Part shown: positions 2,357-36,167 of the stretch, in pieces
Numbering within the stretch: position 1 is the first letter of the stretch
How the letters are laid out: each line of letters starts with the position of its first letter
DNA from: an uncultured Methanosarcinales archaeon
GTDB taxonomy: Archaea > Nanobdellota > Nanobdellia > Woesearchaeales > JAGVZT01
Length of the DNA stretch: 64,000 nucleotides
Direction: 5' to 3'
Assembly (NCBI GenBank): GCA_964354685.1
Contig: CAYHAM010000005.1
Location: 9,942 to 73,941 of the forward strand
The notes under the pieces: generated by a model
Seen by the model: only the letters and a program-made list of their open reading frames with translations
Told to the model about the DNA's origin: nothing
Database searches by the model: none
Made by a program: the position numbers and the translations under genes

Positions 2357-4120
2357 ATGACCAAAACAAAGCGTGCATTAATTTTTGTATTTTTGTTTTT
2401 GCTAGTGTTAGTTCTTCCTAACCTAGCCAATGCTGCTTTGAATTGTAGTGTCACTAATGAAACTTGTAATTATGCTAATGTTTTCCATATGTCTAATCTA
2501 AGTAATGCCCATGCTGAGCAGAGCAATGAGTCTGATTACAACTGGAGTGTTTGTTGTTATGATGACGAGGGTGTTGCAACCTTAGGAACAGGTTGTACCG
2601 AGTATTCTTATACAATACTACATTTGTCTAATTCAACCAATGCGCATGTTGAGCAGAGCAATGAGTCTGATTATGTATATAATGTTTGTTTGAATACAAC
2701 TCATGATGATATTTCATGTGTTTATGCCTCAAGTTGCAGTGGTTATGATACTTGTGTTGCTTCTATTTCTAATCACAAAGATGCTCATATTGGGGATTGC
2801 GTAACAGATCCTTACTCAATCTTGATTTGTTGTAATTTGCAGAGCAAGGGGGTTATATCAACTACTGTGGGCACACAACCATTTTACACTACTTCAAGTA
2901 ATCCTCAGACTTATTTGAATGAGTCTTGTTTGCAGAATATGAAAAAGGGTAATTCCTGCAATGTTACATGGAATGTTGTTCCAACTGGATTAATAGGGAG
3001 TATTTGGCAGTTCTTTACAATATTTGAATCAACAAATTATTCATCTTATGTTAGCCAGCAACACACATCAAAGGGTAATATCACTATTTCTGGTAATACA
3101 GCACCAAGTATCTCTACTCCAACTATTAATCCTGATCCTGCTTATACAGATAATGATTTATTGTGTTATGCTAATGCAACCGATGATTTTAACACAACCT
3201 TGACAATAGAGTATTGGTGGTATAATAGCAGCATTTTGTTCGCTTCTGGAAATTATACTGGCGCTAGCAATGGTTCTAACACTTTGGTAAACACTCTTGA
3301 TTCAAGCTATACTGTTAAAAATGAGACTTGGAACTGTACTGTTAGGGCTTATGATGGAACTGATTATTCTAATTATGCTAGTGCAACAAGGACTATTAGC
3401 AACTCATTGCCTGAACAAGTTGTTTTGGATTATCCTGAAGATAATGATACCACATTTACAAACAGAACTCCAAGGTATAATTGGACTAATGCAACTGATT
3501 TAGATGGTGATTCTATTAGTTATCATATTGAGGTTAGCAAGACTGAAAACTTTTCTGATGAGACTGTTAATGAGACAAGTATAACCAACAATTATTATGA
3601 CCAGCCAACAGAGCTTGATTTTGCAACCTATTGGTGGAGGGTTAGGGCTAATGACTCGGATGGTTATGGTGAATTCAGTGATGTTTGGAACTTTACATTA
3701 GTTACAAGCCCAACTATAACATTGGTTACTGATGTTGTAAATTTCACCAATATGGAGGTTGGAGAGTCAAATGATACCTCTGATAATAACCCAATACCCT
3801 TCAAGATACAGAATGATGGCAATATAGCAGCCAATGTTAGTGTTAATGCAACTGCTTTGTGGACAAGTAGTTATGCTCCTTTAAACACTTCATATTATCA
3901 GTTCAAAGCAAATTACAGTGATGAGGCTAACTCTTTTGATTATGCTAATTCAGCAACCACTTGGCAGAATATGTCTGATGTGAACAAGGATGTTGTGGCT
4001 ATTTTGAATCATACTGATGCAAATGATGTTGTTAATATTGATATTGGTGTATTGGTTGCATTGGATGAGCCTCCTAACTGGAAAACATCAAATGTTTTGT
4101 TTACAGCTGTGGAAACATGA
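2357..4120 (+). CDS. Cys-rich secreted glycoprotein with an internal NAHxEQSNESDY repeat and an FN3-like segment (YWWRVRA)
   Basis: Signal peptide, many CC and C-x-C motifs, dense N-x-S/T sequons. Its stop overlaps the next gene (ATGA). Confidence 0.45.
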   Translation: MTKTKRALIFVFLFLLVLVLPNLANAALNCSVTNETCNYANVFHMSNLSNAHAEQSNESDYNWSVCCYDDEGVATLGTGCTEYSYTILHLSNSTNAHVEQSNESDYVYNVCLNTTHDDISCVYASSCSGYDTCVASISNHKDAHIGDCVTDPYSILICCNLQSKGVISTTVGTQPFYTTSSNPQTYLNESCLQNMKKGNSCNVTWNVVPTGLIGSIWQFFTIFESTNYSSYVSQQHTSKGNITISGNTAPSISTPTINPDPAYTDNDLLCYANATDDFNTTLTIEYWWYNSSILFASGNYTGASNGSNTLVNTLDSSYTVKNETWNCTVRAYDGTDYSNYASATRTISNSLPEQVVLDYPEDNDTTFTNRTPRYNWTNATDLDGDSISYHIEVSKTENFSDETVNETSITNNYYDQPTELDFATYWWRVRANDSDGYGEFSDVWNFTLVTSPTITLVTDVVNFTNMEVGESNDTSDNNPIPFKIQNDGNIAANVSVNATALWTSSYAPLNTSYYQFKANYSDEANSFDYANSATTWQNMSDVNKDVVAILNHTDANDVVNIDIGVLVALDEPPNWKTSNVLFTAVET

Positions 4121-5316
4121 AAATAAAAACAATATTGTGGATGATTGTAGCATTGGTTTTGGTTAGTCAAAGCCTTGCGCTTGGAGTTGCACCAGGCCAT
4201 GAGGATATTGTTTTTGCTCCAAATGGCGAGCATAGGGTAAAACTAAAGATAATCAACAATGACAACAATGATCTTAGAGTGGTTTTGTATGCAGAAGGCG
4301 AGCTTGCAGAGTTTGTCACTTTTGATGATTTGACTATGGATATTAGAGCAGATGAAAAAGAGAGCTTTACTTATTATACATTGAAATTGCCTGAGAAGTT
4401 TGATAAGCAAGGCTTGCATAGTGCTAACATTGTTGTTAGACAGATTCCTCTAGAGAAAGAGGGTGAGGGTATTAGCATGGCTGCTAGTGTTGCTATTATA
4501 CATAAGCTGAATGTTATGGTGCCTTATTCTGGGAAGTATGTTGAGATAACATTGTTTAGTCCAAACTTTGAGGTTGGCAAGCAGAGCAATTTTGCAGTTG
4601 AGGTTAGGAATTTGGGAACAGATGATATTTTGCAGGCTCAGGCGATAGTCGATATTTACGGGCCTTTGAATAACAAGCTTGATACTGTTTATTCTGATAT
4701 TCAGCCAATAGCAGCAAAGGACAAGAAGATATTGGTTGCAAAGTGGATTCCTGCATTAGGTGCTGGGAGTTATTATGCGGTTGCAACTGTTGTTTATGAT
4801 GAGTTGAATGTTAAGGATGAGGCTCAGTTTAATATTGGGACAATGATTATAGATGTTGTTGATGTTAGTGTTACTGACTTTAAGCTTGGAGGCATAGCAA
4901 AGTTTGATATTTTGTTTAGCAGCAACTGGAACATACCTGTTGAGGGGGTTTATGCTGAGACAACTATAACTGATGAGTCTGGCAAGGTTTATACAAAGTT
5001 TAAGACTGCTGATGTTGATATGCCTGCGTTTGGTAAGGAGCGTGTTGATGCCTATTGGGATACTGCAACAGTTGGGCCAGGCAAGTACAAGATGAATGTG
5101 TTGTTAAATTACTTAGATAAAACTTCTGAGAAGCTGTTTGAAATAATCGTTTCAATGGACAAGATCCAGGCTAGTCCTGTTGGTAAGCTTATAACACCAA
5201 TCCAAGAAGATGGTGAAGAGTTAAAGATAACCTCTTTGGTTTATATACTTGCATTCCTTGTTGTTTCGCTGATAATATTCAATGTATATATGTATTTTAA
5301 AAAGTTTAGAAAGTAG
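4117..5316 (+). CDS. Surface protein with signal peptide and C-terminal TM anchor; paralog of 7704..8855
   Basis: Shares the NLGTxxIxxAxAIxDxY core region with the 7704 ORF. C-terminal hydrophobic helix plus KKFRK tail. Confidence 0.5.
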   Translation: MKIKTILWMIVALVLVSQSLALGVAPGHEDIVFAPNGEHRVKLKIINNDNNDLRVVLYAEGELAEFVTFDDLTMDIRADEKESFTYYTLKLPEKFDKQGLHSANIVVRQIPLEKEGEGISMAASVAIIHKLNVMVPYSGKYVEITLFSPNFEVGKQSNFAVEVRNLGTDDILQAQAIVDIYGPLNNKLDTVYSDIQPIAAKDKKILVAKWIPALGAGSYYAVATVVYDELNVKDEAQFNIGTMIIDVVDVSVTDFKLGGIAKFDILFSSNWNIPVEGVYAETTITDESGKVYTKFKTADVDMPAFGKERVDAYWDTATVGPGKYKMNVLLNYLDKTSEKLFEIIVSMDKIQASPVGKLITPIQEDGEELKITSLVYILAFLVVSLIIFNVYMYFKKFRK

Positions 5317-5361
5317 TAGCTAATATTCTTAGTCTAATGATTTTTAATTTTAAAATTATAA

Positions 5362-5407
5362 TTAGCGAGTTGCCAGTGTCTAACCACAATATTGGCAACT
5401 CGTGGTG
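5362..5407 (+). repeat. Hairpin element copy A (TTAGCGAGTTGCC-N19-GGCAACTCGTGGTG)
   Basis: 9-10 bp inverted repeat with a ~19-nt loop containing AACCACAA. Immediately follows the AT-rich TTTTAATTTTAAAATTATAA. Confidence 0.75.
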
Positions 5408-5477
5408 ATTATTATTGGTTTTTAACTAATAAGAGATGAACAAGGTGGTTTATAAGAAACAAGGGTTAATTAACAGA

Positions 5478-5525
5478 AAAATTTATATATGTAATATATA
5501 ATTAGTTTGAATTAGTATAAAAACA
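5478..5525 (+). promoter_or_regulatory. Archaeal TATA-type promoter region shared by all three cassette copies
   Basis: TTTATATAT and GTATAAAA boxes 20-60 nt upstream of the ATG. The same sequence recurs at 6633..6680 and 9410..9457. Confidence 0.4.
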
Positions 5526-5543
5526 AAAAAAAAGGTTGATAAA

Positions 5544-6242
5544 ATGGCTGAAGAGATTTCTAATAGAACATTGGCAATTATGTTGATTGTTGTTATGGCA
5601 ATATCTTTGGGAGGTACTATAATTAGCTTGAATAGGCTAACTCAATTGGGCTTTCCTGGTATAACAGGTGCTGCAACTGGCACAGGGACATCAACAGTGA
5701 ATATAACATCACAGGCATCGATAATTTTTCATGCTGGCAATAACACGGTTGCTTTTGGTAATGGATGGGTGAATAGCACAGAGAGCAGTGGAATTTGTGT
5801 TATGAGTGCTGTAAATAATAGTATTGGTACAATAAGTGCAGCTTGTAAAGGTAATTGGGCTGCTGGTAAGAGTGGGTTTATAATAGAAAACAATGGAAAC
5901 GTGAATCTTAGTGTTGAGGTTCATTCAGACAAAAACGCAACTGAGTTCTTAGGTGGTCAAACCTCTGGAACTAATAACATGAATTTCACTTTTAGGGCTT
6001 ACAACAATGAAACAGCATCATGCGCTTATATAAACGATAGTTGTAATAGTACTGTGTGGCTTGCTTGGCCAAGCGATGATGCAAAAACAGGGATTTGTAA
6101 TACCACTGGGGGTTTGGGTTATGATGACACTAAAGACTCAATGGTTATTGACCTTAACTTAAGCATAGACTACAGAACCAATAAAACTGGTAATGGTACT
6201 CAAACAGCAACAATAACAGCTACTGGTACTGCCCTTATTTAA
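5544..6242 (+). CDS. Secreted/surface paralog family protein (232 aa) with N-terminal signal-anchor
   Basis: About 85-90% identical to 6960..7661 and 9737..10441. Charged N-terminus, ~20-aa hydrophobic segment, many sequons. Ends TATITATGTAL. Confidence 0.55.
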   Translation: MAEEISNRTLAIMLIVVMAISLGGTIISLNRLTQLGFPGITGAATGTGTSTVNITSQASIIFHAGNNTVAFGNGWVNSTESSGICVMSAVNNSIGTISAACKGNWAAGKSGFIIENNGNVNLSVEVHSDKNATEFLGGQTSGTNNMNFTFRAYNNETASCAYINDSCNSTVWLAWPSDDAKTGICNTTGGLGYDDTKDSMVIDLNLSIDYRTNKTGNGTQTATITATGTALI

Positions 6243-6411
6243 CTAGATTTTTTTATATCTTTTTTTGTTTTTGGAAAAGAGAAAATGAGATTATTTTTTT
6301 CAATGTTATACTTACAAAAACTTATGCGGCTTGTTGTTCTTTTTATGAAACTTTAATAAAATTTAAACTTAGGTTGCTGATAGTCATTATTTTTTAATAT
6401 TATTATGATAA

Positions 6412-6461
6412 CTAGGGTCGCCTGATAAGTGCTCAAACATGTTATGTCAGGCTCCTGGTGC
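6412..6461 (+). repeat. Hairpin element, divergent copy with compensatory stem changes (GGTCGCCTGA..TCAGGCTCCTGGTG)
   Basis: Same architecture, different stem sequence, still perfectly paired. Followed by the conserved tail GTTTCTCTCTATACTCAAGGAGACAAGAAAC. Confidence 0.55.
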
Positions 6462-6700
6462 TTTTGTTTCTCTCTATACTCAAGGAGACAAGAAACCTTA
6501 GACCTTTACCCGCGGGTTAATTGAACGTGGTGTATAATTTGCACTGAATTATTTTAATAGTCTATATAACAGTCATTTGTAACCATTAAGGAATAAACAA
6601 CTGTTTTTTGTAAAGAATAATGGTTAATTAACAGAAAAATTTATATATGTAGTATATAATTGGTTTAAATTAGTATAAAAACAAAAAAAAGGTTGATAAT

Positions 6701-6955
6701 ATGGCTCAAGAGGATATTCCAAAAAGGGTGATTTTTGTTCTTTTGATTTTGACAATTGTTATTTCTGTTTTAGGAACTTGGACTGTTCTGGATGCTGTAA
6801 GCAGTGCCCAGCCAAGGGCTTTGCCAAGCACAGCACAGGGTAATGTTAATATTAACATTTTACCACCAAATTCTGGTCAACAAGAACCTGCAATACAAAA
6901 AGCTGAAGCTCAAGGTGTTGTGGGTTTAACAATTCTTGAACAAAAAGGAGGATGA
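6701..6955 (+). CDS. Small membrane-anchored/secreted protein (84 aa), present in two identical copies
   Basis: MAQEDIPKR, then a hydrophobic helix, then a Q/P-rich tail. Identical to 9478..9732. Confidence 0.45.
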   Translation: MAQEDIPKRVIFVLLILTIVISVLGTWTVLDAVSSAQPRALPSTAQGNVNINILPPNSGQQEPAIQKAEAQGVVGLTILEQKGG

Positions 6956-6959
6956 TAGA

Positions 6960-7661
6960 ATGGCTGAAGAGATCTCAAATAGAACATTAGCTATTTTGTT
7001 GATTGTTGCAATTGCAATATCTTTGGGAGGCACGATAATTAGCTTGAATAGACTGACACAAATGGGTTTTCCTGGTATAACAGGTGCTGCACAAACTGAT
7101 ACAGGGACAGCAACTGTTAACATAACATCACAGGCATCGATAATCTTTCATGCTGGCAATAACACGGTTGCTTTTGGTAGTGGATGGGTGAATAGCACAG
7201 AGAGTAGTGGAATTTGTGTTATGAGTGCTATAAATTCTAGTGATGGTACAGTAAATTCGGCTTGTAAAGGTAGTTGGGCTGCTGGTTTGAGCGGATTTAT
7301 AATAGAAAACAATGGAAACGTGAATCTTACTGTTGAGGTTCATTCAGATAAAAACTCAACTGAGTTCTTAGGTGGTCAAACTTCTGGAACTAATAACATG
7401 GCTTTCACTTTTATGGCTTACAATAATGAATCAGCATCATGTACTAGTTTGAACATTACTTGTGATAATGAGTGGTTTGCTTGGCCAGATAATGATGCAA
7501 AAACAGGTATTTGTAATTCCACTACTGGTGGCTTGGGTTATGATGACACTAAAGACTCAATGGTTATTGACCTTAACTTAAGTATAGACTACAGAACCAA
7601 TAAAACTGGTAACGGCACTCAAACAGCAACAATAACTGCTACTGGTACTGCCCTTACTTAA
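6960..7661 (+). CDS. Secreted/surface paralog family protein; start probably the internal ATG (track ORF 6936 uses an alternative start)
   Basis: Alignment with 5544 places the start at MAEEISNRT. Confidence 0.55.
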   Translation: MAEEISNRTLAILLIVAIAISLGGTIISLNRLTQMGFPGITGAAQTDTGTATVNITSQASIIFHAGNNTVAFGSGWVNSTESSGICVMSAINSSDGTVNSACKGSWAAGLSGFIIENNGNVNLTVEVHSDKNSTEFLGGQTSGTNNMAFTFMAYNNESASCTSLNITCDNEWFAWPDNDAKTGICNSTTGGLGYDDTKDSMVIDLNLSIDYRTNKTGNGTQTATITATGTALT

Positions 7662-7703
7662 CTAGATTTTTTTATATCTTTTTTGTTATTTGGAAAAGAG
7701 AAA

Positions 7704-8855
7704 ATGAGATTATTTAAGAGTTTAGGGTTCTTTGTTGTTTTGGGAGTATTTTTTATTTTTGTTAGCCCATTTGCCTTGGGAGTGAGTATACAGCCTGCTA
7801 AGTATAGCATCAACTTTGAGCCCAATCTTGAAAAAGATTTTGGTTTTTACATTTGTGGTGCTGCTAAAATCGAGACTTATCTTGATGGAGATTTAGTAAA
7901 ATATGCAACAATCATAGATAATGAACCAAATAGCAGTTGTAGGGATATTGTTGTAAGAGTAAGATTGCCTAATAAAATAGAAAAGCCTGGTAAAAACATA
8001 TTGTTGGTTGGTGCCAAGGAATTGATAGAGGTTGGTAGTGGGGTGGCTGGCCGTGCTGCTATACAAGCACCAATTGTTATATTTGTTCCCTATCCTGGGA
8101 TGTATGTTGAATGGAATTTTGTAGCACCAAATGTGAATGAGGGCGAAACTGTGCATTTTATTGTATCTGTCAGCAACCTTGGAACTAATAACATCCAAAG
8201 CGCAAGGGCTATAATAGATGTTTATGATGATAACTCAAAAATAAAAAGTCTTAATACAGATGAAAAATCAATACCATCAAAAGAAAGCGCAGAGTTTCCT
8301 CTGGATATGGAAACAACAGGAATGAAGGCTGGTTCTTACAGGGTTGTTACAACCTTGTATTATGATGGGAGATCTGATTTAAAGGAGAAGTCTTTTAACA
8401 TAGGAAGCTTGTATGTGGCAATAAACAATTACACCAAGGTTCTAGAGCAAGGCAAGATCAATAAAGTTGGTATTGAGATTGAGAGTAAATGGAATAACAA
8501 TTTACAGGATGTTTATAGTGCGGTAACTATAAATGGTGTTAAGGTTAAAACACCAAACTATGACCTAAAGGCATGGGAGACAAAAGAGATAGCTGCTTAT
8601 TACGACACAACTGGAATGGACATCGGAGAGTATGATGCACAAATAACCTTGTATTATGGGGGAAAAACAACAACTGAAGAGGGAAAGGTTTATGTTGTTG
8701 AGCAGAGTGAAGTGCAAAGCTCTGAGGCAAAAGAGGAAAAACCATGGAATATAAGTTTTAATATAACACCAACTACCCTCTTAGTAGCTATAATTATTAT
8801 ATTGGTTGTTGTTGACATTGTGTGGTTGATTATAAGAAGGAAAAATAAAAGGTAG
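7704..8855 (+). CDS. Surface protein with signal peptide and C-terminal TM anchor (paralog of 4117..5316); start likely ATG at 7704 rather than TTG at 7683
   Basis: MRLFKSLGFF signal. C-terminal TM plus RRKNKR tail. Confidence 0.5.
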   Translation: MRLFKSLGFFVVLGVFFIFVSPFALGVSIQPAKYSINFEPNLEKDFGFYICGAAKIETYLDGDLVKYATIIDNEPNSSCRDIVVRVRLPNKIEKPGKNILLVGAKELIEVGSGVAGRAAIQAPIVIFVPYPGMYVEWNFVAPNVNEGETVHFIVSVSNLGTNNIQSARAIIDVYDDNSKIKSLNTDEKSIPSKESAEFPLDMETTGMKAGSYRVVTTLYYDGRSDLKEKSFNIGSLYVAINNYTKVLEQGKINKVGIEIESKWNNNLQDVYSAVTINGVKVKTPNYDLKAWETKEIAAYYDTTGMDIGEYDAQITLYYGGKTTTEEGKVYVVEQSEVQSSEAKEEKPWNISFNITPTTLLVAIIIILVVVDIVWLIIRRKNKR

Positions 8856-8864
8856 TATGTTATA

Positions 8865-9281
8865 ATGAGATTCAAACAACTTTTATTAATACTTGTTCTT
8901 ATAGCTGTTGTTTGTGTTACATCAACAATGTTGTTTTATTCTTTCTATATTGTGGAGGACGTGAAGGTTATCCCAATGGATATGGTTGTTAGTGATCATT
9001 ATGGTTTTAATCTTGATACAGATGCTATGCATTTTGGGATGTCAACCAGCCCAGGCTCTACAAAAAGGGCTTTGAATATTTCCCAAAATGGTGAGCATCC
9101 ACTAATGGTTGAGATCAAGACGTATGGGGATATTGGTAACTGGGTTTATCCTGAAGATAATGGTTTTGTTTTGGAGCCAGGTATAATTAAAGAGGTTATG
9201 CTCAATATAAATGTACCAGAGAATATAGGGTATGGACAATATAATGGGACAATAAGTGTTTTCTTTAAAAGAATAATTTAA
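8865..9281 (+). CDS. Hypothetical secreted/membrane protein (138 aa)
   Basis: N-terminal hydrophobic helix. ORF only. Confidence 0.35.
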   Translation: MRFKQLLLILVLIAVVCVTSTMLFYSFYIVEDVKVIPMDMVVSDHYGFNLDTDAMHFGMSTSPGSTKRALNISQNGEHPLMVEIKTYGDIGNWVYPEDNGFVLEPGIIKEVMLNINVPENIGYGQYNGTISVFFKRII

Positions 9282-9477
9282 TCTTATTATATTATTAATT
9301 CACTGATTTATATTAATAAAATTAATACTATCATTTTTATTGAGGGATATTAGTTGTAACTATTTAGGAATAAACAACAATGTTTTGTAAGAAACAAGGG
9401 TTAATTAACAGAAAAATTTATATATGTAGTATATAATTGGTTTAAATTAGTATAAAAACAAAAAAAAGGTTGATAAT

Positions 9478-9732
9478 ATGGCTCAAGAGGATATTCCAAA
9501 AAGGGTGATTTTTGTTCTTTTGATTTTGACAATTGTTATTTCTGTTTTAGGAACTTGGACTGTTCTGGATGCTGTAAGCAGTGCCCAGCCAAGGGCTTTG
9601 CCAAGCACAGCACAGGGTAATGTTAATATTAACATTTTACCACCAAATTCTGGTCAACAAGAACCTGCAATACAAAAAGCTGAAGCTCAAGGTGTTGTGG
9701 GTTTAACAATTCTTGAACAAAAAGGAGGATGA
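9478..9732 (+). CDS. Small membrane-anchored protein (84 aa), identical copy of 6701..6955
   Basis: 100% identity. Confidence 0.45.
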   Translation: MAQEDIPKRVIFVLLILTIVISVLGTWTVLDAVSSAQPRALPSTAQGNVNINILPPNSGQQEPAIQKAEAQGVVGLTILEQKGG

Positions 9733-9736
9733 TAGA

Positions 9737-10441
9737 ATGGCTGAAGAGATCTCAAATAGAACATTGGCTATTTTGTTGATTGTTGCGATTGCAATATCTT
9801 TGGGAGGCACGATAATTAGCTTGAACAGACTGGCACAGGTGCGTGTTCCTACTATAACAGCTGCTGCATTAACAGACACAGGGACAGCAACTGTAAATAT
9901 AACATCTCAGGCATCGATAATTTTTCATGCTGGCAATAACTCGATTGCTTTTGGTAGTGGATGGGTGAATAGCACAGAAAGCAGTGGAATTTGTGTTATG
10001 AGTGCTATAAATTCTAGTGATGGTACAGTAAATTCAGCTTGTAAAGGTAGTTGGGCTGCTGGTTTAAGTGGGTTTATAATAGAAAACAATGGAAACGTGA
10101 ATCTTACTGTTGAGGTTCATTCAGACAAAAACTCAACTGAGTTTTTGGGAAATCAAACTTCTGGAACTAATAACATGAATTTCACTTTTATGGCTTACAA
10201 CAATGAAACAGCATCATGCGGTCAATTGAACGCTAGTTGTGATGATGAGTGGCTTGCTTGGCCAAATGGGGATGCAAAAACAGGAATATGCTTTAATACA
10301 TCTAATGGTGGCTTGGGTTTTGATGACACTAAAGACTCAATGGTTATTGACATTAACTTGAGTATAGACTATAGAACCGTTCTCACTGGTAATGGTACTC
10401 AAACAGCAACAATAACTGCTACTGGTACTGCCCTTACTTAA
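9737..10441 (+). CDS. Secreted/surface paralog family protein (third copy)
   Basis: Paralog of 5544 and 6960. Confidence 0.55.
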   Translation: MAEEISNRTLAILLIVAIAISLGGTIISLNRLAQVRVPTITAAALTDTGTATVNITSQASIIFHAGNNSIAFGSGWVNSTESSGICVMSAINSSDGTVNSACKGSWAAGLSGFIIENNGNVNLTVEVHSDKNSTEFLGNQTSGTNNMNFTFMAYNNETASCGQLNASCDDEWLAWPNGDAKTGICFNTSNGGLGFDDTKDSMVIDINLSIDYRTVLTGNGTQTATITATGTALT

Positions 10442-10601
10442 CTAGATTTTTTTATATCTTTTTTGTTTTTGGAAAAGAGAAAATGAGGTTATTTAAGGAT
10501 TTATTTCTATTATTAAAATTATGATTAGTAAGTTGCTATAAAACTAGCTAATATTATCTTCTATTAATATAATGATATTAATAACAAAATTTTTAATGAT
10601 A

Positions 10602-10647
10602 TTAGCGAGTTGCCAGTGTTTAACCACAAAATTGGCAACTCGTGGTG
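10602..10647 (+). repeat. Hairpin element copy B, preceded at 10525..10555 by a degenerate half-copy (TAAGTTGCTATAA)
   Basis: TTAGCGAGTTGCCAGTGTTTAACCACAAAATTGGCAACTCGTGGTG. Confidence 0.75.
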
Positions 10648-10835
10648 CGTCTATAATTAGATATTCTCCATGTGGTTTTTCTTATTGTTGATTATCAACT
10701 TTTTTAGCCAATTATTTGTTTATTGTTGATTTTCAACAATATTCCTTGTTTATATATAAACCAATATATGTTTAATATCAACAACAAAAGATTTATATAG
10801 GGGTTTTGTTGATTATAAACAACTGATGTGTTTTT

Positions 10836-11162
10836 ATGTATATTGATGAGTTTGAAAGCATGGTTAATGAAAAAGAGGTTGTGGATTTATTAAAGAAGAG
10901 CTTTGGTTCTAAAGCCAAGTTTAGGTTGATTGTTTTGGTTACATATTCACTTGAAAATCTTAATCATTCTCAGAAAACCTTGTTTGGTTATGCTTTAAAG
11001 GGCAGAACAGGTCAGAAAGGGTTTTTGGATAAACTAGATGGAGAGGCGGTTGGCAGGAACAATGTTCTGATTCCAGTTGATAATCTAACTCAGTTAAAGG
11101 AGTTTTTTGCAACATGGAATGTAAAGTATAATGTTAGAAAATTCATAGAATTAAAAGAATGA
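10836..11162 (+). CDS. Hypothetical protein (108 aa) translationally coupled to the 915-aa surface protein (ATGA overlap)
   Basis: ORF only. Stop/start overlap. Confidence 0.4.
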   Translation: MYIDEFESMVNEKEVVDLLKKSFGSKAKFRLIVLVTYSLENLNHSQKTLFGYALKGRTGQKGFLDKLDGEAVGRNNVLIPVDNLTQLKEFFATWNVKYNVRKFIELKE

Positions 11163-13906
11163 AAAGAACATATAAGAAAAGGAAGGAGAAGCATTTTTCG
11201 AACAACTTAGTTGCGTTGCTTGCAGTTGCCTTTGCAATTATCTCCTTGATTTGTAATATGGAGGTGTATAAAGGAACAGCGAAACTTATGCCTGTTGGAA
11301 GAGCAGTTGCTCAGGGCACAGTTAGTTTCAACATAGCAGGTTATCAACCAGTTCCTTTTGTTACTTACCCAAATGGGTGTGAGGTTGTGAATGGAACTAT
11401 TATGATAAATTCAACAGTGACTGATAAAGATGGTAATGACAGCATAGCTAATGTTAGCTTTTATTATTCAGGCGCGTTTAATGAATCTGGCCAAACATAT
11501 GTTGGTATACAAGTTTATGATGGGGATGTTTATTATGAGCAGAGCTGGAACACAAGCAATGTTTCAGATGGGATATACTACAAAATAAGGATTAATTCTG
11601 TTGACAATAAATCAATAACTGCTCAAGACAAGTCAAACAATTTCTTTGCAGTTAATAACATTGATGAGGTACCAGAGTGGGAGGAGTTCAAGTATGGTGT
11701 TTCAACAAATCTAAGCACGTTGAGCAAATGGTGGAATGTGAGCAATTTGCTGCTTGGTAATAATTATGGAATGATAAACTTCTCTAGCCAAACGCTTAAT
11801 GTGGATGGTGTTAATCTTTCAGCGTATATAGAGATAACTTTTGCAAAAATATTTTTGGATGATGATTACTTGCCATGTATGAGTGTTCCTGCTTACCTTC
11901 ACTTTTTTAATGTGAGCTTGACTGATCCTAGAATATTGAGGGATGGCGTGGAGTGTTCAGCACCTGCTTGTATCTTGATTTCAAATAATGGGAACGATGT
12001 TGTTTATAGGGTTTTAACCTTCTCAACATATGAGGTTTTTGATAATGCACAGCTTGAGATTTGGGATGTTACAGACAAAGGTGTTTATAATGGTAACCAA
12101 ACAAGGTATAAGAATGAGCAAACCGAGTTTTATGCAAATTTAACTTCAAATGGAACAGCAGTAAATGATAATTACACAAGCTGTTGGATAAGGTTCAACA
12201 TATCCGCAGATGAAACAGAATGGGAGGAGATGGAATTTAAGGGAAGCAGTTATCTTTATGAATCCCATCGAAAGTTTAATAATCCTGGTATCTACCCTTG
12301 GAAGGTTGTTTGTAATAACACTCAATCTGTGTATTTCAACTATACTAGAAATGATACTGTTAATATTTCTAACAGAGCTCCTGTTTTGACTTCTGCTTTA
12401 CCAAATATAACAATGCTGGAGGATAGGCAGCTTCTGTATGTTGATCTTGATGATTATTTTGAAGATCCTGATGGTGACACTATGACTTATAATAGTTCTT
12501 ATGTGCCAAATATAGTTATAACAATTGGAATAGGTAATATTGTTACTGTGGCTCCTGCTCAAAACTGGTATGGTAACAGGAGTTTTTTCATTAATGCAAT
12601 AGATGCATTCAACGCAACAACACAGAGTAATAGAATTTATATAACCGTAATCGATGTTCCAGAACCTTTACCAGAAACTGGTGCTGGCGGTGGTGGTGGT
12701 GGCGGAGGAGGCTATACTGAGACAGAATACATTGAAAGACCAGATTGTGTTGATAAGTGGAGGTGTTCATCATGGTCTGCTTGTGAGTTTAGATGGCCTG
12801 ATATTGAGGTTGATGAGATAAATGAGAATGATGGTATAAGAACAAGAAGTTGTGTTGATGTTAATAAGTGCAACTATTTTTGGAAGAAGCCCAATGAGAC
12901 AATGGATTGTTTTTATCAGCCAACATGCGATGATCATATCAAAAACCAAAAAGAGGAAAAAGTGGATTGCGGTGGGCCTAATTGCCCTGTTTGTCCAACA
13001 TGTGAGGATGGGGTTCAAAACCAGAATGAGACTGGCATGGATTGCGGTGGGCCTTGTAAGAGTTGTCCAAGCTGTTATGACGGTATACAAAACCAAGGTG
13101 AGGAAGGGGTTGATTGTGGTGGGCCTTGTAAGAGTTGTGCTTTGTTGGAAAAGCCAGAGCCTATTTTTGATTGGTTGATGATTGGATTGTTTGTTTTGAT
13201 GCTTTCGGTTTTGTTGTTTACAACATACATATTTGTTAGGCCTTACATTGTTAGGATAACCTTGAGTATAATGGGGCTAAAAGAGAGGATAAGGAGGAAA
13301 GAGGTGCCAACAAAGAGTTTGCTTGATTTAGAGTTAGACACATTGTTCAAGTTAGACAAACTAATCAAGATGTTAGAAAAGGGTGATCTAGATGATATAT
13401 CAAAACAATTCAATGCTGTTTTTAGAAGGTTTTTGAAAGAGGCGCTTAAAATAGAGTATGAGTTTACATATGAAGAGTTACAAGAGGAGATTAAGAAGCA
13501 GAATCTGCCTAGGTTATTAAAGATTGCTTTGAGTAATTATGTAAAAGAGCTCACTGAGATTCAGTATGGAAAGAGAAAACTAACAAAAGAATTGTTGAGT
13601 ATGGAGATTAAAAGAGCAAAGGAGCTTGTTGATTTGATTGTAAAAAATCTTCCAAAAGAGGTGGTGGCTGTAGAGAAAAAAGCTAAAGTGAGAGAATCTA
13701 GAGTTGATATAATAAGTGTGTATAAGCTAATTGTGGATGCAGAGAGGGCTTTGGCAAAGAAGGATATTGAGAAGGCAGGTAAGGTTTATAGTGAAATAGC
13801 CTCTGTTTATAAAAGACTACCTGATAAGCAAAAGAGGGAGATTTATCAAAAGGTATCAAAATTGGTGAAAGATATTGATGGTATGTCAAAGGATATGAAA
13901 AGATGA
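11159..13906 (+). CDS. Large surface glycoprotein (915 aa). Has LPETG-Gly9, three DCGGPC-x-C repeats, a TM helix and a ~225-aa cytoplasmic tail with the YEFTYEEL domain
   Basis: Signal/TM near the N-terminus and many sequons. Repeats QNQxExGxDCGGPCKSC occur three times. TM IGLFVLMLSVLLF. The tail is homologous to the N-terminus of the 18137 ORF. Confidence 0.55.
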   Translation: MKRTYKKRKEKHFSNNLVALLAVAFAIISLICNMEVYKGTAKLMPVGRAVAQGTVSFNIAGYQPVPFVTYPNGCEVVNGTIMINSTVTDKDGNDSIANVSFYYSGAFNESGQTYVGIQVYDGDVYYEQSWNTSNVSDGIYYKIRINSVDNKSITAQDKSNNFFAVNNIDEVPEWEEFKYGVSTNLSTLSKWWNVSNLLLGNNYGMINFSSQTLNVDGVNLSAYIEITFAKIFLDDDYLPCMSVPAYLHFFNVSLTDPRILRDGVECSAPACILISNNGNDVVYRVLTFSTYEVFDNAQLEIWDVTDKGVYNGNQTRYKNEQTEFYANLTSNGTAVNDNYTSCWIRFNISADETEWEEMEFKGSSYLYESHRKFNNPGIYPWKVVCNNTQSVYFNYTRNDTVNISNRAPVLTSALPNITMLEDRQLLYVDLDDYFEDPDGDTMTYNSSYVPNIVITIGIGNIVTVAPAQNWYGNRSFFINAIDAFNATTQSNRIYITVIDVPEPLPETGAGGGGGGGGGYTETEYIERPDCVDKWRCSSWSACEFRWPDIEVDEINENDGIRTRSCVDVNKCNYFWKKPNETMDCFYQPTCDDHIKNQKEEKVDCGGPNCPVCPTCEDGVQNQNETGMDCGGPCKSCPSCYDGIQNQGEEGVDCGGPCKSCALLEKPEPIFDWLMIGLFVLMLSVLLFTTYIFVRPYIVRITLSIMGLKERIRRKEVPTKSLLDLELDTLFKLDKLIKMLEKGDLDDISKQFNAVFRRFLKEALKIEYEFTYEELQEEIKKQNLPRLLKIALSNYVKELTEIQYGKRKLTKELLSMEIKRAKELVDLIVKNLPKEVVAVEKKAKVRESRVDIISVYKLIVDAERALAKKDIEKAGKVYSEIASVYKRLPDKQKREIYQKVSKLVKDIDGMSKDMKR

Positions 13907-16900
13907 GTGAAAATAAGAGAAGAGGGATAGTGAAAATATTGTTGTTGGTTTTTGTACTAATATTAAGTATAGTTTTTTTGAATAGTGTAAAAGCCACTGA
14001 TCCATCTTTTGATCCATCGCCTCCTTCAATGTTTAATCTAACACAGGATGTAAATTTTTATTATGATTTGAACGCAACTGATCCTGACAATAACACACCA
14101 TTCGTATTTTCTGATGATGCTGCATCTAGGGGTTGGTACGTATTTTTGATGAATAATGTAACGGGTGAGATAAACTTTACTCCATCAAATGATGATGTTG
14201 GATCAAACCAAGTTACTCTAATTGTTACTGATAGTAATTTAGAGCAGGATTCTAAGCTTGTTAATTTCAATGTGTCGAATGTGAATGACCCTCCGAATAT
14301 AACAGGATATACACCAACAAATTTAACACCAACAATCTATGAGAATGATTCTATTGGGTTTACATTTAATTACAATGCAACTGATCCTGATCTTCCTTAT
14401 GGTGATTCATTAACAAACACGTGGTATATGGATGGGGTTAACCAATCAAACAACCAGTCTTGGACTTACACACCTGACTTTTGTGAACCAAGTAATAGAA
14501 ACATAACCCTGATTGTCTGGGATTTGTATAATGCTACTGACAGTGTTGAGTGGAATGTGACTGTTATCAATGTTAACAGGCCTGTTGAATTTAACTCAAG
14601 CAGTCCAATACAGGATATAACCTGGCCAGAGGACACAGACCTAATAAACAACATATCATTAAACAATTATTTCTATGATCTTGATTATTCTGAGTGTAAT
14701 GATTCTCTGAATTTCAGTGTTGTTGGCAATCAGAGTATTGTGGTTAATATAAGCAGTATAACACCTCACAATGTTAGCTTCCACACACTACCTGACTGGT
14801 TTGGGGTGGAGGTAATTAATTTCACTGCTTGGGATGGTTATGACAATGCAACTAGCAACAATGTTGTGCTCAATGTCACTGATGTGGAAGACGCGCCTGT
14901 TATTGAGAATATCTCTGACCAGGTTGCTTATGCTTATGCTCCCTTTAGTCTACAAGTGAATGCAAGTGACCCTGATAATGATACTTTGACTTATTATGAT
15001 AATACAACTATGTTTGATATCAATCCATCAACTGGTTTGATTTCATTTACACCCAACCAATCTAATGTGGGAAATTATTCTATTATGATTAATGTTACTG
15101 ATGATGCAAACAATGTTTTCACAACCTTTGATTTGACAATTTACAACAATTCTGTACCAGGCATAGATTTAATCACAGATCAAGTTGTTGAGGAGAGCAG
15201 TTTGTTCCAGATAACTGTTAATGGCTCTGATTCTGATGCAGACAATCTCACTTTCCAGACAAATTATTCTGCAATGATAAATCCTGTTTGGAGCAATGCC
15301 ACTTCTGCAACATTTAGCTTTACTCCGTACCAGTATAATGTTGGCAATCATTCAATTAAGGTCACTGTTTTGGATGAGCATGGTGCAAGCAATTTCACGA
15401 TATTTAATTTGAGTGTTACTGATATCAACAACCCTCCTGTTCTAGATTCAATACCAACTCCACAGATTGTGAAGATAAACAAGAGTTTCACAATGCAGTT
15501 AAATGCAAGTGATGCTGATGGTGATGAGTTGAACTTTACCCATAATGCTTCTCCTGTTGATTTTCCAAACTTTTATATGAATAGCAGTGGGTTTATCAAC
15601 TTTACAGCAAATGCATCTGATGAGGGCAATCATAGTTTGAATATTACTGTCTGGGATGTAACTGCTGTGCCAAAGCAGGATTCCCAGATTGTTTTATATA
15701 TAGTTACATATAACAGACCACCAATTATAGATGCAGTGGGTATGCAGAATGGAACAGAGGATGATTTATTTACCTTACAGATAAATGCAACTGATCCTGA
15801 CAATGATCCAATAGTATTTTATACAAACTCAACAATATTTAACATAAGCACTGGTGGTTTGATAAACTTCACTCCTAATGGAAGCCATGTTGGTTTGCAT
15901 AATATCTCTGTTAATGTTAGTGATGGGGATGGCGGGTGGGGGAATATTACATTTTTACTGAATATATCTGATAAGAATGATGCTCCTTACTTCGATCCTC
16001 CTCTAGAAAATTTGAGTATATGGAACAACATATATGAAGATTCGTTGATTGAGATATATGTTAATGCAACTGATGAGGAGAATGATGATTTGACGTTTAC
16101 AAGAACATTCTTAAATGGGTCTACTATATTCAACATAACAAAGATAGGAACAAATCAGGCTCTGATAAATTTCACTCCTACACAGGCTGATGTGGGGTAT
16201 AATTACTCTGTTAATATAACTGTTAGTGATGGTATAAACACAACATGGGTTGTTATAAACTTCAGTGTTTATAATGTGAATGATGCACCAAATATAACTA
16301 GAGTGTATCCTTATGGAACACCATTGTCGAATTATACTGTTTTTGGTTGGGCCAATCATAGCTATTTCCCAAATGGAAGTTGGATAAATGCTTCTGAGAA
16401 TATGAGTATTTTCTTTAATCATAGTAGTACTGATCCTGATAATGCAAGCTTGATTTATATATGGTATTTTAATGGTAATATTGTTAATAACCAATCATAT
16501 TGGAATTATTCTTTGAATTTTAGCTCAAATGGCACTCATAATGTAACTCTAGTTGTTAGTGATGGTAATTTGAGTGATAGCATGTATTGGAACTTGAGTG
16601 TTTCAAATGTGAATAGGCCACCTGTGTTTGGCAAAAAGATTCATGATGATTATGCTGACTTTTCAGGAGGGAGTTTTTATAGAACCAATGTAACTTCAGA
16701 TGGAAGAATAGAGTTAAGCGAGAACTCAAGCTATTATCCAAATGGTTTGTATAATTCCTCTGTTATTAATCTTGATATGGATGATGGGTTTAATTATAGC
16801 ACGATTAGCTGGTCAGCATATGTGCCTAATGGTACAAGTGCAGATATAAAGACAAGAACATCCACAGATGGTTTATCTTGGAGTAGTTGGAGCAGTGCCA

Positions 16901-18090
16901 TTAATATAACTGGTAATGGTAATGTAGAATTTCCCTCACTTAGTTATAGGTATGTTCAATACATGATAAACCTTTCAACATCAAACACATCAATAACACC
17001 TTATATTAGTAGCATTACAATAAATTATGTTGTATCAAACAAAAGTCTGGCTGAAAACCAAGATGTTAATTATGGCGCATGGATTGATTTAGATGATTTC
17101 TTCTATGACCCTGATGGTGATAGCTTAAATTTCAGTGTTGGTGGTGAGTCAAATATTGATGTTATAATACAGAACACAACAAACTTTGTTGGCTTGTTCC
17201 CAGTTAGTGTTGGTACTGATACAATAACATTTAGTGCAATTGATAGCAATGGGGATAACATAACTAGCAACTCTTTCTTAATAATAGTGACTGAGGCAAC
17301 TGGAACAGGGTTGCAAGAGACAAGTAGTAGTGGGGGCACAAGCGTGGTGATTAGGACAAAGGTGAAAGAGGAGGAGAAAGAGGTGGAGAAGATCATCAAC
17401 CTTGATATTATTGTGCCAGAGGCTTTGACGACTTATAGGAACTCAACGATTGTTTCTCCAATTAGACTTAGAAACACTGGAAAAGAGGTTTTGGAGAATA
17501 TTAATTTGTCAGCAAGTTCAAACAATACAGGGCTAACAATGGAGTTTACAAAGAGTTTCTTCAAGAGCTTGGGAGTTAATGAGGAAGAGAAAACAAATCT
17601 TGTTATAACCTCTCCTGAATTTTTAGGTAATTATGAGATTGTGGTGACAGCTAGTGTGCAAAACCCAGAGTTTGAGGATAGTGCAAAAATAATTTTGAAC
17701 ACACTTGAGAAGGGAGAGCTCAACAAGACTCAGCTCTATACAAAAATAACCTTTACTGAAGATTTGTTGCTTGCAAACCCAGAGTGTTTGGAACTGATGG
17801 AGCTTTTGAAGGAGGCTGAGAAGGCTGTGAATGAATCAAGGTTTGTTGATGCAAATGATCAGATAGAGAAGGCAATAAGGGGTTGTAGGTATTTAATAGC
17901 AGCAAAAGAAACCTTTTTAGAAGAGCCAAGTCCTATTGAGAGAATATATGATAGGATATTTGGATTGACCTCAAAGAACAGGGTGTTGAGTTATGTCTTG
18001 ATAATTGCGGGTATATTCACACTTCTGACTTTCTCGCTCTTGTGGGAGAGATTTAGAAAGGGGAGGGAGTTAAAGAAAAAGAAGTCTTAA
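13903..18090 (+). CDS. Giant surface protein (1395 aa) with cadherin-like / Dystroglycan-type repeats and a C-terminal TM anchor
   Basis: Recurrent NATDPDND, FYDPDGD and NVNDAPNIT motifs. C-terminal hydrophobic helix plus RKGRELKKKKS. ATGA overlap with the upstream gene. Confidence 0.6.
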   Translation: MSENKRRGIVKILLLVFVLILSIVFLNSVKATDPSFDPSPPSMFNLTQDVNFYYDLNATDPDNNTPFVFSDDAASRGWYVFLMNNVTGEINFTPSNDDVGSNQVTLIVTDSNLEQDSKLVNFNVSNVNDPPNITGYTPTNLTPTIYENDSIGFTFNYNATDPDLPYGDSLTNTWYMDGVNQSNNQSWTYTPDFCEPSNRNITLIVWDLYNATDSVEWNVTVINVNRPVEFNSSSPIQDITWPEDTDLINNISLNNYFYDLDYSECNDSLNFSVVGNQSIVVNISSITPHNVSFHTLPDWFGVEVINFTAWDGYDNATSNNVVLNVTDVEDAPVIENISDQVAYAYAPFSLQVNASDPDNDTLTYYDNTTMFDINPSTGLISFTPNQSNVGNYSIMINVTDDANNVFTTFDLTIYNNSVPGIDLITDQVVEESSLFQITVNGSDSDADNLTFQTNYSAMINPVWSNATSATFSFTPYQYNVGNHSIKVTVLDEHGASNFTIFNLSVTDINNPPVLDSIPTPQIVKINKSFTMQLNASDADGDELNFTHNASPVDFPNFYMNSSGFINFTANASDEGNHSLNITVWDVTAVPKQDSQIVLYIVTYNRPPIIDAVGMQNGTEDDLFTLQINATDPDNDPIVFYTNSTIFNISTGGLINFTPNGSHVGLHNISVNVSDGDGGWGNITFLLNISDKNDAPYFDPPLENLSIWNNIYEDSLIEIYVNATDEENDDLTFTRTFLNGSTIFNITKIGTNQALINFTPTQADVGYNYSVNITVSDGINTTWVVINFSVYNVNDAPNITRVYPYGTPLSNYTVFGWANHSYFPNGSWINASENMSIFFNHSSTDPDNASLIYIWYFNGNIVNNQSYWNYSLNFSSNGTHNVTLVVSDGNLSDSMYWNLSVSNVNRPPVFGKKIHDDYADFSGGSFYRTNVTSDGRIELSENSSYYPNGLYNSSVINLDMDDGFNYSTISWSAYVPNGTSADIKTRTSTDGLSWSSWSSAINITGNGNVEFPSLSYRYVQYMINLSTSNTSITPYISSITINYVVSNKSLAENQDVNYGAWIDLDDFFYDPDGDSLNFSVGGESNIDVIIQNTTNFVGLFPVSVGTDTITFSAIDSNGDNITSNSFLIIVTEATGTGLQETSSSGGTSVVIRTKVKEEEKEVEKIINLDIIVPEALTTYRNSTIVSPIRLRNTGKEVLENINLSASSNNTGLTMEFTKSFFKSLGVNEEEKTNLVITSPEFLGNYEIVVTASVQNPEFEDSAKIILNTLEKGELNKTQLYTKITFTEDLLLANPECLELMELLKEAEKAVNESRFVDANDQIEKAIRGCRYLIAAKETFLEEPSPIERIYDRIFGLTSKNRVLSYVLIIAGIFTLLTFSLLWERFRKGRELKKKKS

Positions 18091-26963: not shown

Positions 26964-27076
26964 AAAATGAAAAAGCCTCCGGAGGGAGTTGAACCCTCGA
27001 CCTGCGGATCACTTGCATAAGGGCTACAAGTTTCGGCTTTAGAAATCCGCCGCAATAGCCACTATGCTACGGAGGC
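26964..27076 (-). tRNA. tRNA-Arg (anticodon TCT) with a canonical-position intron (~30 nt)
   Basis: Reverse complement has GCCTCCG/CGGAGGC acceptor, GCGGA-TTTCTA-(intron)-A-TCCGC, and T-arm GAGGG-TTCAACT-CCCTC. Confidence 0.7.
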
Positions 27077-34716: not shown

Positions 34717-34717
34717 C

Positions 34718-36166: not shown

Positions 36167-36167
36167 T

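Follow-up and report, generated by a model that had tools for sequence, protein, structure and literature searches.

A tandemly triplicated promoter and secreted-protein gene unit at the head of a conserved woesearchaeal operon

Major filament genes that are present in several copies and evolve in concert are a familiar pattern, as in the tandem archaellin flaB genes and multiple pilin paralogs, and paralogous major subunits also occur in TasA systems (TasA and CalY in B. cereus). The locus described here lies in a 64,000-nucleotide (nt) stretch of contig CAYHAM010000005.1 (the window; all coordinates are window positions) from a tiny, symbiotic-type archaeon of the Woesearchaeota, and it carries three tandem units of a promoter and a gene for a secreted protein, the second of which heads a four-gene operon. 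Among the closest described systems, the TasA filaments of Bacillus and the AbpA bundling pili of Pyrobaculum are built by N-terminal strand donation, and TapA and AbpB adjoin TasA and AbpA, respectively (PMC9245690). The threads of Sulfolobus are heavily N-glycosylated, with Saci_0405 proposed as their cap (PMC9715654). In the WxL/csc clusters of Gram-positive bacteria, a protein consisting of the domain alone, in one or two copies, is combined with a large protein that ends in the same domain and with a partner that has two immunoglobulin-like (Ig-like) domains and a transmembrane segment (PMC9772566, PMC10599100), and WxLIP is predicted to insert a strand into the WxL domain (PMC10599100). 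We consider it probable, at roughly 0.6, that duplicated transcription units at the present locus raise the dose, and diversify the paralogs, of the main building block of a surface fibre or complex.

Self-comparison of positions 4500-11500 showed families of direct repeats tiling three co-oriented units at 5446-6296, 6604-7715 and 9381-10495, in concordance with a three-way alignment, which confirms the tandem triplication proposed by the original prediction, made from the sequence alone. Every unit has a putative promoter with a transcription factor B recognition element (BRE) and TATA box, a gene for a secreted glycoprotein of 232-234 amino acids (aa), here called the major protein, an oligo-T tract and the initial codons of the next gene. 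The upstream block common to the units (87-100 nt, 89-94% identity; repeat family D5, 87 nt) contains, in order, CAGAAAAA, TTTATATA, an A8 or A9 tract and AAGGTTGATAA immediately before the ATG. At the 3' end, TAACTAGATTTTTTTATATCTTTTTTG...GGAAAAGAGAAAATGAG(A/G)TTATTT comprises the oligo-T tract, a ribosome-binding site and the first four or five codons of the next gene; the right border of units 1 and 3 lies 12-15 nt inside gene 3 of the operon, with repeat family D2 ending at 6296 and 10495. Judged by archaeal consensus, each unit is a plausible complete transcription unit of BRE/TATA, leader, open reading frame(s) (ORFs) and oligo-T tract, in which the upstream elements are predicted to act as a promoter and the tract after the major gene as a terminator-like signal, or perhaps an attenuator. 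The homopolymer tract of the leader has nine A residues in unit 1 (5526-5534) and eight in units 2 and 3 (6684-6691, 9461-9468); the T tracts 3' of the major genes differ too (T7/T6), and together these tracts are a possible substrate for slipped-strand effects.

Unit 2 and the sequence at 7704-9281 form the canonical operon, which encodes a small protein (84 aa), the major protein (233 aa), gene 3 (383 aa) and gene 4 (138 aa). As had been predicted, gene 3 is complete after unit 2 only, and remnants of 23 codons (6285-6356) and 13 codons (10483-10524) are left after units 1 and 3. The predicted absence of the 84-aa ORF from unit 1, with the promoter fused to the large paralog, was also borne out: the promoter-type leader GGTTGATAA runs into a major-type start, ATGGCTGAAGAGAT, and the junction lies in TGATAnnATGGCT. 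As this sequence is common to the start regions of the small and major genes, a deletion by microhomology, which was clean and in-frame, accounts for the structure of unit 1.

A stretch of 367 bp is the same, base for base, in units 2 and 3 (6622-6988 and 9399-9765); it is slightly longer than the approximately 340 bp predicted and spans the promoter, the entire 84-aa ORF and the first 29 nt of the large ORF. Such a run is not expected by chance at approximately 90% identity, since 0.9^367 is about 1e-17. Synonymous divergence (dS) in the remainder of this pair is approximately 0.24 and the major paralogs are 82-88% identical as proteins, which agrees with the predicted recent and localised conversion. 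Of 109 informative sites in the major gene, 49 group copies 2 and 3, 37 group copies 1 and 2, and 23 group copies 1 and 3, and these patterns fall into 55 runs, compared with 70.5 +/- 4.8 in shuffles (p ~6e-4). Because the informative sites cluster, the copies are mosaics produced by repeated conversion, of which the 367-bp identity is the latest tract.

The ratio of nonsynonymous to synonymous divergence (dN/dS) between the major copies is 0.31-0.41 overall and 0.09-0.14 in the N-terminal segment. The highest values fall in the beta-sandwich domain: the ratio peaks at 1.03 in alignment columns 60-140 for copies 1 and 3, and reaches 0.41-0.75 in columns 140-200 (around residues 160-190), the value of 0.75 belonging to copies 2 and 3. 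Replacements cluster in one loop region, at residues ~160-190, and alter N-glycosylation sequons, of which copies 1, 2 and 3 have 15, 13 and 14 in the mature domain, and at four positions a sequon is present in some copies and absent from others. Coil accounts for 31 of the 48 variable residues with a secondary-structure call (50 columns vary, two being insertion columns). Selection on the copies is purifying, with relaxed or diversifying pressure on exposed loops, and does not have the signature of an arms race.

The arrangement was compared with 44 further loci fetched from species-representative genomes, counted as distinct loci, in which all ORFs were classified by iterated hidden Markov model (HMM) search; denominators below 44 refer to the loci with enough flank. 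The same row of a small (81-100 aa), a major (218-227 aa), a 374-458-aa and a 137-147-aa protein is present at L001, L002/L003, L004 and L005. The small gene lies upstream of the major gene in 34/40 loci, a gene-3-type protein follows the major protein in 37/39 and gene 4 in 27/35, and a TATA-like box occupies the same position upstream of the small gene at L001 and ten other loci. As unit 2 thus heads an operon conserved across Woesearchaeota and other DPANN archaea, units 1 and 3 are partial duplicates of its 5' part. In the closest syntenic genome (L001, 7189-11395), the four genes of the operon occur once and in the opposite orientation with respect to the same flanking genes, which encode a 396-aa and a giant protein on one side and 94-, 923- and 1402-aa proteins on the other.

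Most relatives have a single major gene, and extra copies, giving two or three genes each, were found at 7/44 other loci, arranged as small-major-small-major, as major-major, or with the extras after gene 3 or gene 4. In seven of eight multi-copy loci (the window and six others), copies within a genome are 60-93% identical, compared with at most 56% to any other genome. Since identity within genomes exceeds that between them, either amplification of the major gene has been repeated and lineage-specific, or the copies have been homogenised by conversion. The accessory genes remain single where the major gene is amplified.

These data agree with an ordinary amplification of the gene for a major structural subunit, whose paralogs evolve in concert. 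As with tandem archaellins, which are transcribed separately or jointly, the most abundant subunit would be present in copies 80-90% identical, with conversion tracts and single-copy accessory genes, and the triplication as such is ordinary because tandem surface-subunit paralogs evolving in this way are a familiar pattern; unlike them, every copy has its own duplicated promoter and terminator-like tract, and the subunit family is uncharacterised. In the mechanism we propose, segmental duplication copied the promoter, small gene, major gene, oligo-T tract and first codons of gene 3 to give units 1 and 3, and the small gene was later lost from unit 1 through the microhomology described above. 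The outcome would be three independent transcription units for the major subunit, with one set of accessory genes serving all three. The copies have continued to exchange sequence by conversion while diverging mainly in one loop region and in their sequons, and the effect would be more product together with three glycosylation and sequence variants of the most abundant building block. Both the dosage effect and the surface location are inferred. The coordinates of the features are given in Table 1.

Table 1. Features of the triplicated locus and its flanks, in window coordinates
Feature	Position	Strand	Basis and remarks
587-aa secreted protein: ordinary signal peptide, Cys-rich repeats, Ig-like domain, major-like C-terminal domain	2357..4120	+	
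399-aa gene-3 paralog: signal peptide, Ig/CARDB-like domains, C-terminal membrane anchor	4117..5316	+	BLASTP
Hairpin H1, 10-bp perfect stem GCGAGTTGCCA.../...TGGCAACTCG, just 3' of the 399-aa gene	5361..5407	+	fold -25.4 kcal/mol, z -4.5
Putative promoter copy 1	5446..5543	+	BRE-like CAGAAAAA 5474-5481, TATA TTTATATA 5482-5489, A9 tract, Shine-Dalgarno-like AAGGTTGAT; leads straight into major copy 1
Major-subunit paralog 1, 232 aa, 15 N-glycosylation sequons	5544..6242	+	ORF, alignment
Oligo-T tract (terminator-like) and 23-codon remnant ORF MRLFFSML...FMKL with gene-3-like start, ATG 6285	6243..6356	+	
Hairpin H2, flanks as H1/H3 (TTTTTAAT...TAG / TGGTG), stem differs, diverged copy	~6411..6459	+	fold -20.6 kcal/mol, z -2.2
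Putative promoter copy 2, TATA 6640-6647, A8 tract	6604..6700	+	repeat family D5, promoter alignment
Small protein copy A, 84 aa	6701..6955	+	ORF; homologue alignment
Major-subunit paralog 2, 233 aa	6960..7661	+	ORF; AlphaFold2; family alignment
Oligo-T tracts T7, T6 between major gene and gene 3	7662..7703	+	repeat family D2; in all three units
Gene 3, 383 aa: signal peptide, three Ig-like beta-sandwich domains, linker, C-terminal transmembrane helix	7704..8855	+	AlphaFold2, predicted local distance difference test (pLDDT) 88
Gene 4, 138 aa: N-terminal membrane anchor and one beta-sandwich-like domain	8865..9281	+	no Pfam/NCBIfam match
Putative promoter copy 3, TATA 9417-9424	9381..9477	+	repeat family D5, promoter alignment
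Small protein copy B, 100% identical to copy A	9478..9732	+	ORF comparison
Major-subunit paralog 3, 234 aa, 14 sequons	9737..10441	+	ORF, alignment
Oligo-T tract and 13-codon remnant ORF MRLFKDLFLLLKL with gene-3-like start, ATG 10483	10442..10524	+	sequence; repeat family D2
Copy of the 399-aa gene 3' end and hairpin H3	10530..10647	+	local alignment to 5302-5407: score 96, z 24.6
Four palindromes TTGTTGATnnTCAACAA at 10685, 10723, 10768, 10806, spacing 38/45/38 nt	10685..10822	.	upstream of 108-aa gene (10836-11162)
Downstream partners: 108-aa protein, 915-aa membrane protein, 1395-aa Big_9/cadherin-like surface protein	10836..18090	+	Pfam

The hairpins and units are ordered as H1, unit 1, H2, unit 2 with its two further genes, unit 3 and H3. 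The predicted bracketing of the units by hairpins therefore holds only roughly, with hairpins at 5361-5407, ~6411-6459 and 10601-10647 and none between the operon and unit 3. H3 is a second copy of H1 with two mismatches, where none would be expected by chance. The sequence similarity of H2 to H1 is weak, and the correspondence of their flanks comes from alignment A3. A start of gene 3 fused to the tail of the 399-aa gene and its hairpin is the expected product of a tandem duplication with one endpoint in the last codons of the 399-aa gene and the other in the first codons of gene 3, and at least two duplication events of different age are needed for the whole array. The hairpins were also considered as a conserved RNA, which was rejected: they matched no Rfam family at E<=1, and no comparable hairpin was found between the 399-like and small genes of the other loci, so they are regarded as local 3'-end elements copied with the duplication.

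The homologues of the major protein came solely from Woesearchaeota and other DPANN metagenome bins, and all were annotated as 'hypothetical', with 200-250 aa and no Pfam domain. An exhaustive profile search placed 2,550 clusters (50% identity) in the family at E<=1e-3 and 606 at E<=1e-30. No Pfam or NCBIfam match was obtained for the major proteins of the window, nor a consistent family among 40 members scanned, and scans of all locus proteins against both databases gave sub-threshold noise only (CARDB, DUF11, WxLIP_HBD, Rifin). Literature searches on pili, donor-strand assembly or TasA in Woesearchaeota and other DPANN archaea yielded no account of the operon. The operon and its extended locus are undescribed in the literature searched and in Pfam and NCBIfam.

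In the family alignment (A2), 14 of 24 invariant or near-invariant columns fall within the first 30 residues (ISNRTLAILLIVAIAISLGGTIISLN). Conserved beyond them are P..TG.A, a strand-like tGTAxVNIT, the IENDGN motif, three invariant Cys and a C-terminal TATITATGT strand. The AlphaFold2 model of the major protein, built from a 40-sequence alignment (pLDDT 82, predicted template modelling score 0.71), has an N-terminal helix at 7-30, an unpaired linker of 30 residues and a beta-sandwich at 61-231, and residues 48-58 are unpaired in the monomer. The small protein begins with a conserved membrane segment resembling that of the major protein (DISNKTIVVLVVLTVIISILGTWTVL; alignment of 43 homologues) and continues with two copies of a strand motif only (sGxVsLtI ... 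PP ... tGxVtLeI; here GNVNINI and GVVGLTI). The two proteins have in common a conserved N-terminal membrane or sorting segment followed by the strand motif tGxAxVxI.

Upstream of the array, residues ~480-583 of the 587-aa secreted protein are homologous to the major protein (jackhmmer E 3.6e-19; hhalign against A2, probability 71%, E 3.7e-5); this protein is a candidate for the large or tip adhesin of the same system. The next gene encodes a paralog of gene 3 (28% identity between the 399-aa and 383-aa proteins by BLASTP, E 1e-33; weak CARDB match, E 4e-4). Together with the operon and the downstream partners they form a block of secreted or anchored proteins, 2357-18090, all on one strand, whose components recur elsewhere. 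Homologues of the 587-aa protein occupy the same position at L001, L005, L015, L031, L035, L036, L041, L043, L045 and others, and at many loci much larger versions precede the operon together with the gene-3 paralog, the latter lying upstream in 12/34 loci. A 915-like gene is found within 5 kb downstream of the operon in 19/29 loci, with a 1395-like gene next in at least 11.

Beta-strand complementation is the most likely way in which the subunits would be joined or held, and five points favour it. The only structural neighbours of the major protein are strand-complemented filament subunits; the strand segment that follows the membrane helix, although conserved, has no pairing partner in the model of the monomer; the small protein is little more than that segment, twice; the large adhesin has an acceptor-type domain at its extreme C-terminus, as in FimH and PapG; and the invariable neighbour is an anchored protein with several Ig-like domains, comparable to AbpB/TapA or WxLIP. 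None of these is proof. The Ig-like anchored proteins (383 aa and the 399-aa paralog) would act as partners or chaperones on the membrane side.

The structural neighbours were identified in a Foldseek search of the PDB, the top list of which consisted nearly entirely of donor-strand filament subunits (FimA, CupE, Csu, the Sulfolobus thread 7pnb, PapE and CanA), with E values of 0.025-0.5, none significant, template modelling (TM) scores of at most 0.5 on the target, and some viral jelly rolls among the matches; a sequence-profile search of the PDB with the major family returned nothing at E<=10. Chaperone-usher pili and Sulfolobus threads (Saci_0406/0405) thus provide the best weak structural matches of the major protein. 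For Saci_0406, the Foldseek match to 7pnb_A was weak (E 0.099, TM 0.27-0.32) and the PDB profile search gave no sequence match. Like Saci_0405, the small protein could donate a strand without accepting one, and the major protein is heavily N-glycosylated by prediction, as the threads are. The 587-aa protein has the two-domain arrangement of FimH and PapG with a subunit-like domain at the C-terminus, which is an architectural analogy only. In contrast to chaperone-usher pili, an outer membrane is lacking, the major protein exceeds their subunits in size, with a Cys-rich insertion and a long conserved N-terminal membrane segment, and no PapD-family chaperone, usher or related Pfam family was found among the genes of the locus.

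The resemblance to TasA/TapA and AbpA/AbpB is one of gene order and architecture: a secreted beta-sandwich major protein of ~200-260 aa is followed by a signal-peptide protein of ~400 aa with three beta-rich domains, and motifs run parallel in the same order (SLGGT..SLN and GGGTWAAFND; tGTAxVNI and FASGTLDL; IENNGN and FENNGS). As the N-terminus and the ENNG motif recall TasA by eye, membership of this family was tested, using a TasA query verified against PDB 8aur and a 36-member family profile. It was rejected: no match to PF12389 (TasA/camelysin) was obtained at E<=10 for the window proteins or 40 family members, and hhalign of A2 gave a probability of 0.3% with TasA alone and of 2% (E 0.022) with the 36-sequence alignment. 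The sole stretch aligned, non-significantly, was the signal and donor-strand region, SLGGTiiSLNRL...TG.A..tGTa.v.I against SLVGGGTWAAFND...FA.GTLdL. Unlike in the TasA and AbpA systems, gene 3 is anchored in the membrane at its C-terminus, a strand-only small protein and an anchored 138-aa protein are added, and the lineage is DPANN. The operon resembles strand-complemented pili, as well as the WxL clusters discussed below, yet membership of each, when tested, was not supported.

More tentatively, the operon could represent an undescribed class of archaeal surface fibre typical of Woesearchaeota and other DPANN archaea, which we put forward as a possibility. In such a fibre, a heavily N-glycosylated beta-sandwich major subunit would be polymerised by N-terminal strand donation, with the large adhesin at one end through its C-terminal acceptor domain and the strand-only 84-aa protein as cap, nucleator or anchor. 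Membrane-anchored Ig-like proteins would take the place of the periplasmic chaperone and usher. The recurrent amplification and conversion of the major gene would tune and diversify the fibre for contact with a host or surface.

Woesearchaeota and other DPANN archaea are believed to spend their lives attached to other cells, and the molecules of contact are largely unknown. Here a block of six to nine genes for unannotated secreted and anchored proteins is conserved in dozens of genomes, its major protein falling into thousands of clusters. If the proposal of a fibre or adhesion complex is true, the block would be a concrete and testable candidate for the attachment apparatus of these archaea, and might add a fourth, independent archaeal lineage of filaments joined by strand complementation. 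The triplication itself matters less; it marks the 233-aa protein as a component whose amount and surface are under pressure, and offers three natural variants for structural and antigenic comparison.

Several observations weigh against subunit amplification in a strand-complemented structure as we interpret it. No fold or profile match to any filament family was statistically significant (best Foldseek E 0.025; hhalign with TasA, 2%). The supposed donor-strand segment seems, by eye, to have a counterpart within the 587-aa protein, outside the hhalign match, so that it could be the domain's own first strand, which weakens the argument from the unpaired strand. H3 and the tail of the 399-aa gene lie downstream of unit 3 and H1 upstream of unit 1, and a single simple tandem duplication was rejected, as it accounts for unit 1 and H2, and not for unit 3 and H3 beyond gene 4. 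The A8/A9 differences in the 5' leader leave slipped-strand regulation conceivable.

The alternative that survives best, rather doubtful in our view, is a non-filamentous surface display complex of the WxL/csc kind, in which one type of docking domain would be common to the major protein and the adhesin, and both would be held at the envelope by the Ig-like proteins anchored in the membrane. The locus has the cluster grammar of WxL/csc systems (PMC9772566, PMC10599100), including the small anchored protein, and the major-like domain at the C-terminus of the 587-aa protein would be the shared one; extra major copies would then diversify the displayed layer. Gene 3 has a C-terminal transmembrane helix and matched WxLIP_HBD weakly (E 0.058, 13.8 bits with a cutoff of 28.9). 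In Foldseek its model matched WxLIP (9i1y) at E 4.9e-8, but only at rank 48 among generic matches to tandem Ig/ASH, macroglobulin (MG ~1e-9) and RbmA domains, and the PDB sequence-profile search with gene 3 found CARDB-like single domains only (E ~0.01). Membership of the WxL family was rejected, with no match to PF13731 and a single Trp in the A2 consensus in place of the paired WxL motif. The partner also has three Ig-like domains where the WxL/csc partner has two, the lineage is archaeal and not bacterial, archaea of this group have no peptidoglycan to bind, and a display complex would leave the conserved N-terminal segment and the strand-only small protein unexplained.

The original prediction saw in the locus a device for surface-antigen or copy-number variation. 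Such a programme, in which the array would switch an exposed protein by recombination, copy-number change or A8/A9 slippage, could draw on the mosaic conversion tracts, on the replacements and altered sequons clustered at residues ~160-190, on the A9 leader of unit 1 beside the A8 leaders of units 2 and 3, and on direct repeats of 0.85-1.1 kb, which would permit unequal crossing-over. However, all three copies are full-length with near-identical promoters and starts, so there are no silent, promoterless donor cassettes; the self-comparison found no inverted repeats flanking the promoters, and no recombinase or invertase was found among the scanned ORFs of at least 120 aa. With three copies only, a single one in most relatives, and dN/dS of 0.3-0.4 and below 1 nearly throughout, programmed variation is unlikely. 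Surface diversification is possible, considering the clustered loop replacements and changed sequons.

It is also improbable that the major and small proteins are unusual type IV pilins, with the N-terminal segment as the pilin core helix, assembled by an ATPase/platform system 22-29 kb away. That set, resembling type IV pilus and archaellum genes, lies on the minus strand at 32867-38975 and comprises T2SSE (34718-36166), two T2SSF genes (33898-34716 and 32867-33901) and a 935-aa TPR protein. On this reading the amplification would have provided additional pilin genes, comparable to multiple archaellins; conservation is highest in the first 30 residues, which are predicted to be helical, no canonical class III pilin gene adjoins the T2SSE and T2SSF genes of the window, and at L019 two T2SSF genes (positions 7-1424) lie directly upstream of the small-major pair. 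Against this, the family alignment has no class III cleavage motif ([KR][GA]-hydrophobic), neither the Pfam archaeal Pilin_N nor the NCBIfam archaellin/pilin N-terminal models were matched, and a linker of 25-30 residues with a signal-peptidase-I-like TG.A separates helix and domain. T2SSE was in the flanks of 0/49 loci and T2SSE/T2SSF were absent from 48/49, the constant neighbours being all-beta anchored proteins and not pilus machinery.

With respect to the assembly, an independent Logan contig from run ERR3804374 matches the window at 7658-9417 with 100% identity, spanning gene 3, gene 4, their junction with unit 3 and the entry into its promoter, and stops at the repeat edges as expected from a de Bruijn assembler; a related strain (L051) has the row of small gene, major gene, gene 3 and gene 4, with 86-88% DNA identity to the three units, and an exact-sequence look-up of major copy 2 returned no further contig. 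The source contig was assembled from a metagenome, the NCBI contig is the only record of the three complete major proteins, and a 367-bp identical stretch could mislead a short-read assembler. An artefact, by expansion of one gene or by the joining of strain variants into a spurious tandem array, is nevertheless hardly credible, because the copies differ by 12-18% in protein, the flanks and junctions are different and too specific, the deletion in unit 1 is clean and in-frame, the Logan contig reproduces one junction and multi-copy arrangements recur in unrelated metagenome-assembled genomes.

The remaining observations concern the neighbourhood of the amplified subunit genes. The four palindromes mark the right border of the duplicated region, and similar ones lie upstream of the orthologous 94-aa gene at L001 (7510-7600); they look operator-like, and are perhaps sites for the 108-aa-type small protein itself. 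Small proteins of this type often sit between the operon and the 915-aa gene. At L022 (715-1620) and L043 (3002-4107), two or three tandem small ORFs (..IPVSIFKE..LSPFEAIVKYLKE..YH.IG.LLNRDERNIWTVYNRARKK), probably encoding a DNA-binding protein, are found between the 399-like and small genes, together with a short membrane protein containing KPKGITG(F/L)AV, the motif that follows the membrane segment in the major protein. A Cys-flanked motif, (H/S)xSNxxNAHxEQSNESDY...VC(C/L), occurs three times towards the N-terminus of the 587-aa protein, and the relatives of this protein elsewhere are giant proteins of 1,000 to more than 2,600 aa with LamG and other adhesion domains.

By eye, the N-terminus of the 915-aa protein (11159-13906; counterpart at L001, 4421-7192), FSNNLVALLAVAFAIISL...PVGRAVAQGTVSFNI, resembles the N-terminal module of the small and major proteins. 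An HMM of this module did not detect the 915-aa protein significantly, and only the L001 orthologue scored (E 0.015). A 552-aa protein encoded on the minus strand (18137-19795) has a region in common with the 915-aa protein (phmmer 8.8e-10), and is probably part of the conserved block, as its homologues follow the 1395-like gene on the opposite strand at several loci. Directly after the surface-protein block comes a Bat-like trio (19896-22732), made up of a MoxR AAA+ ATPase (AAA_3), a DUF58 protein and a VWA protein.

The window as a whole is archaeal in character, with ~35% G+C and tRNA genes of more than the usual length. Two of these are called by Rfam, at 26974-27076 (103 nt) and 30330-30413 (84 nt); ARAGORN finds only one of the two and gives it an unresolved 4-base anticodon. 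Archaeal introns are probably present in both. Another local triplication is found at 55879-58575, where three paralogs of the EamA transporter family (296, 298 and 298 aa) lie in tandem.

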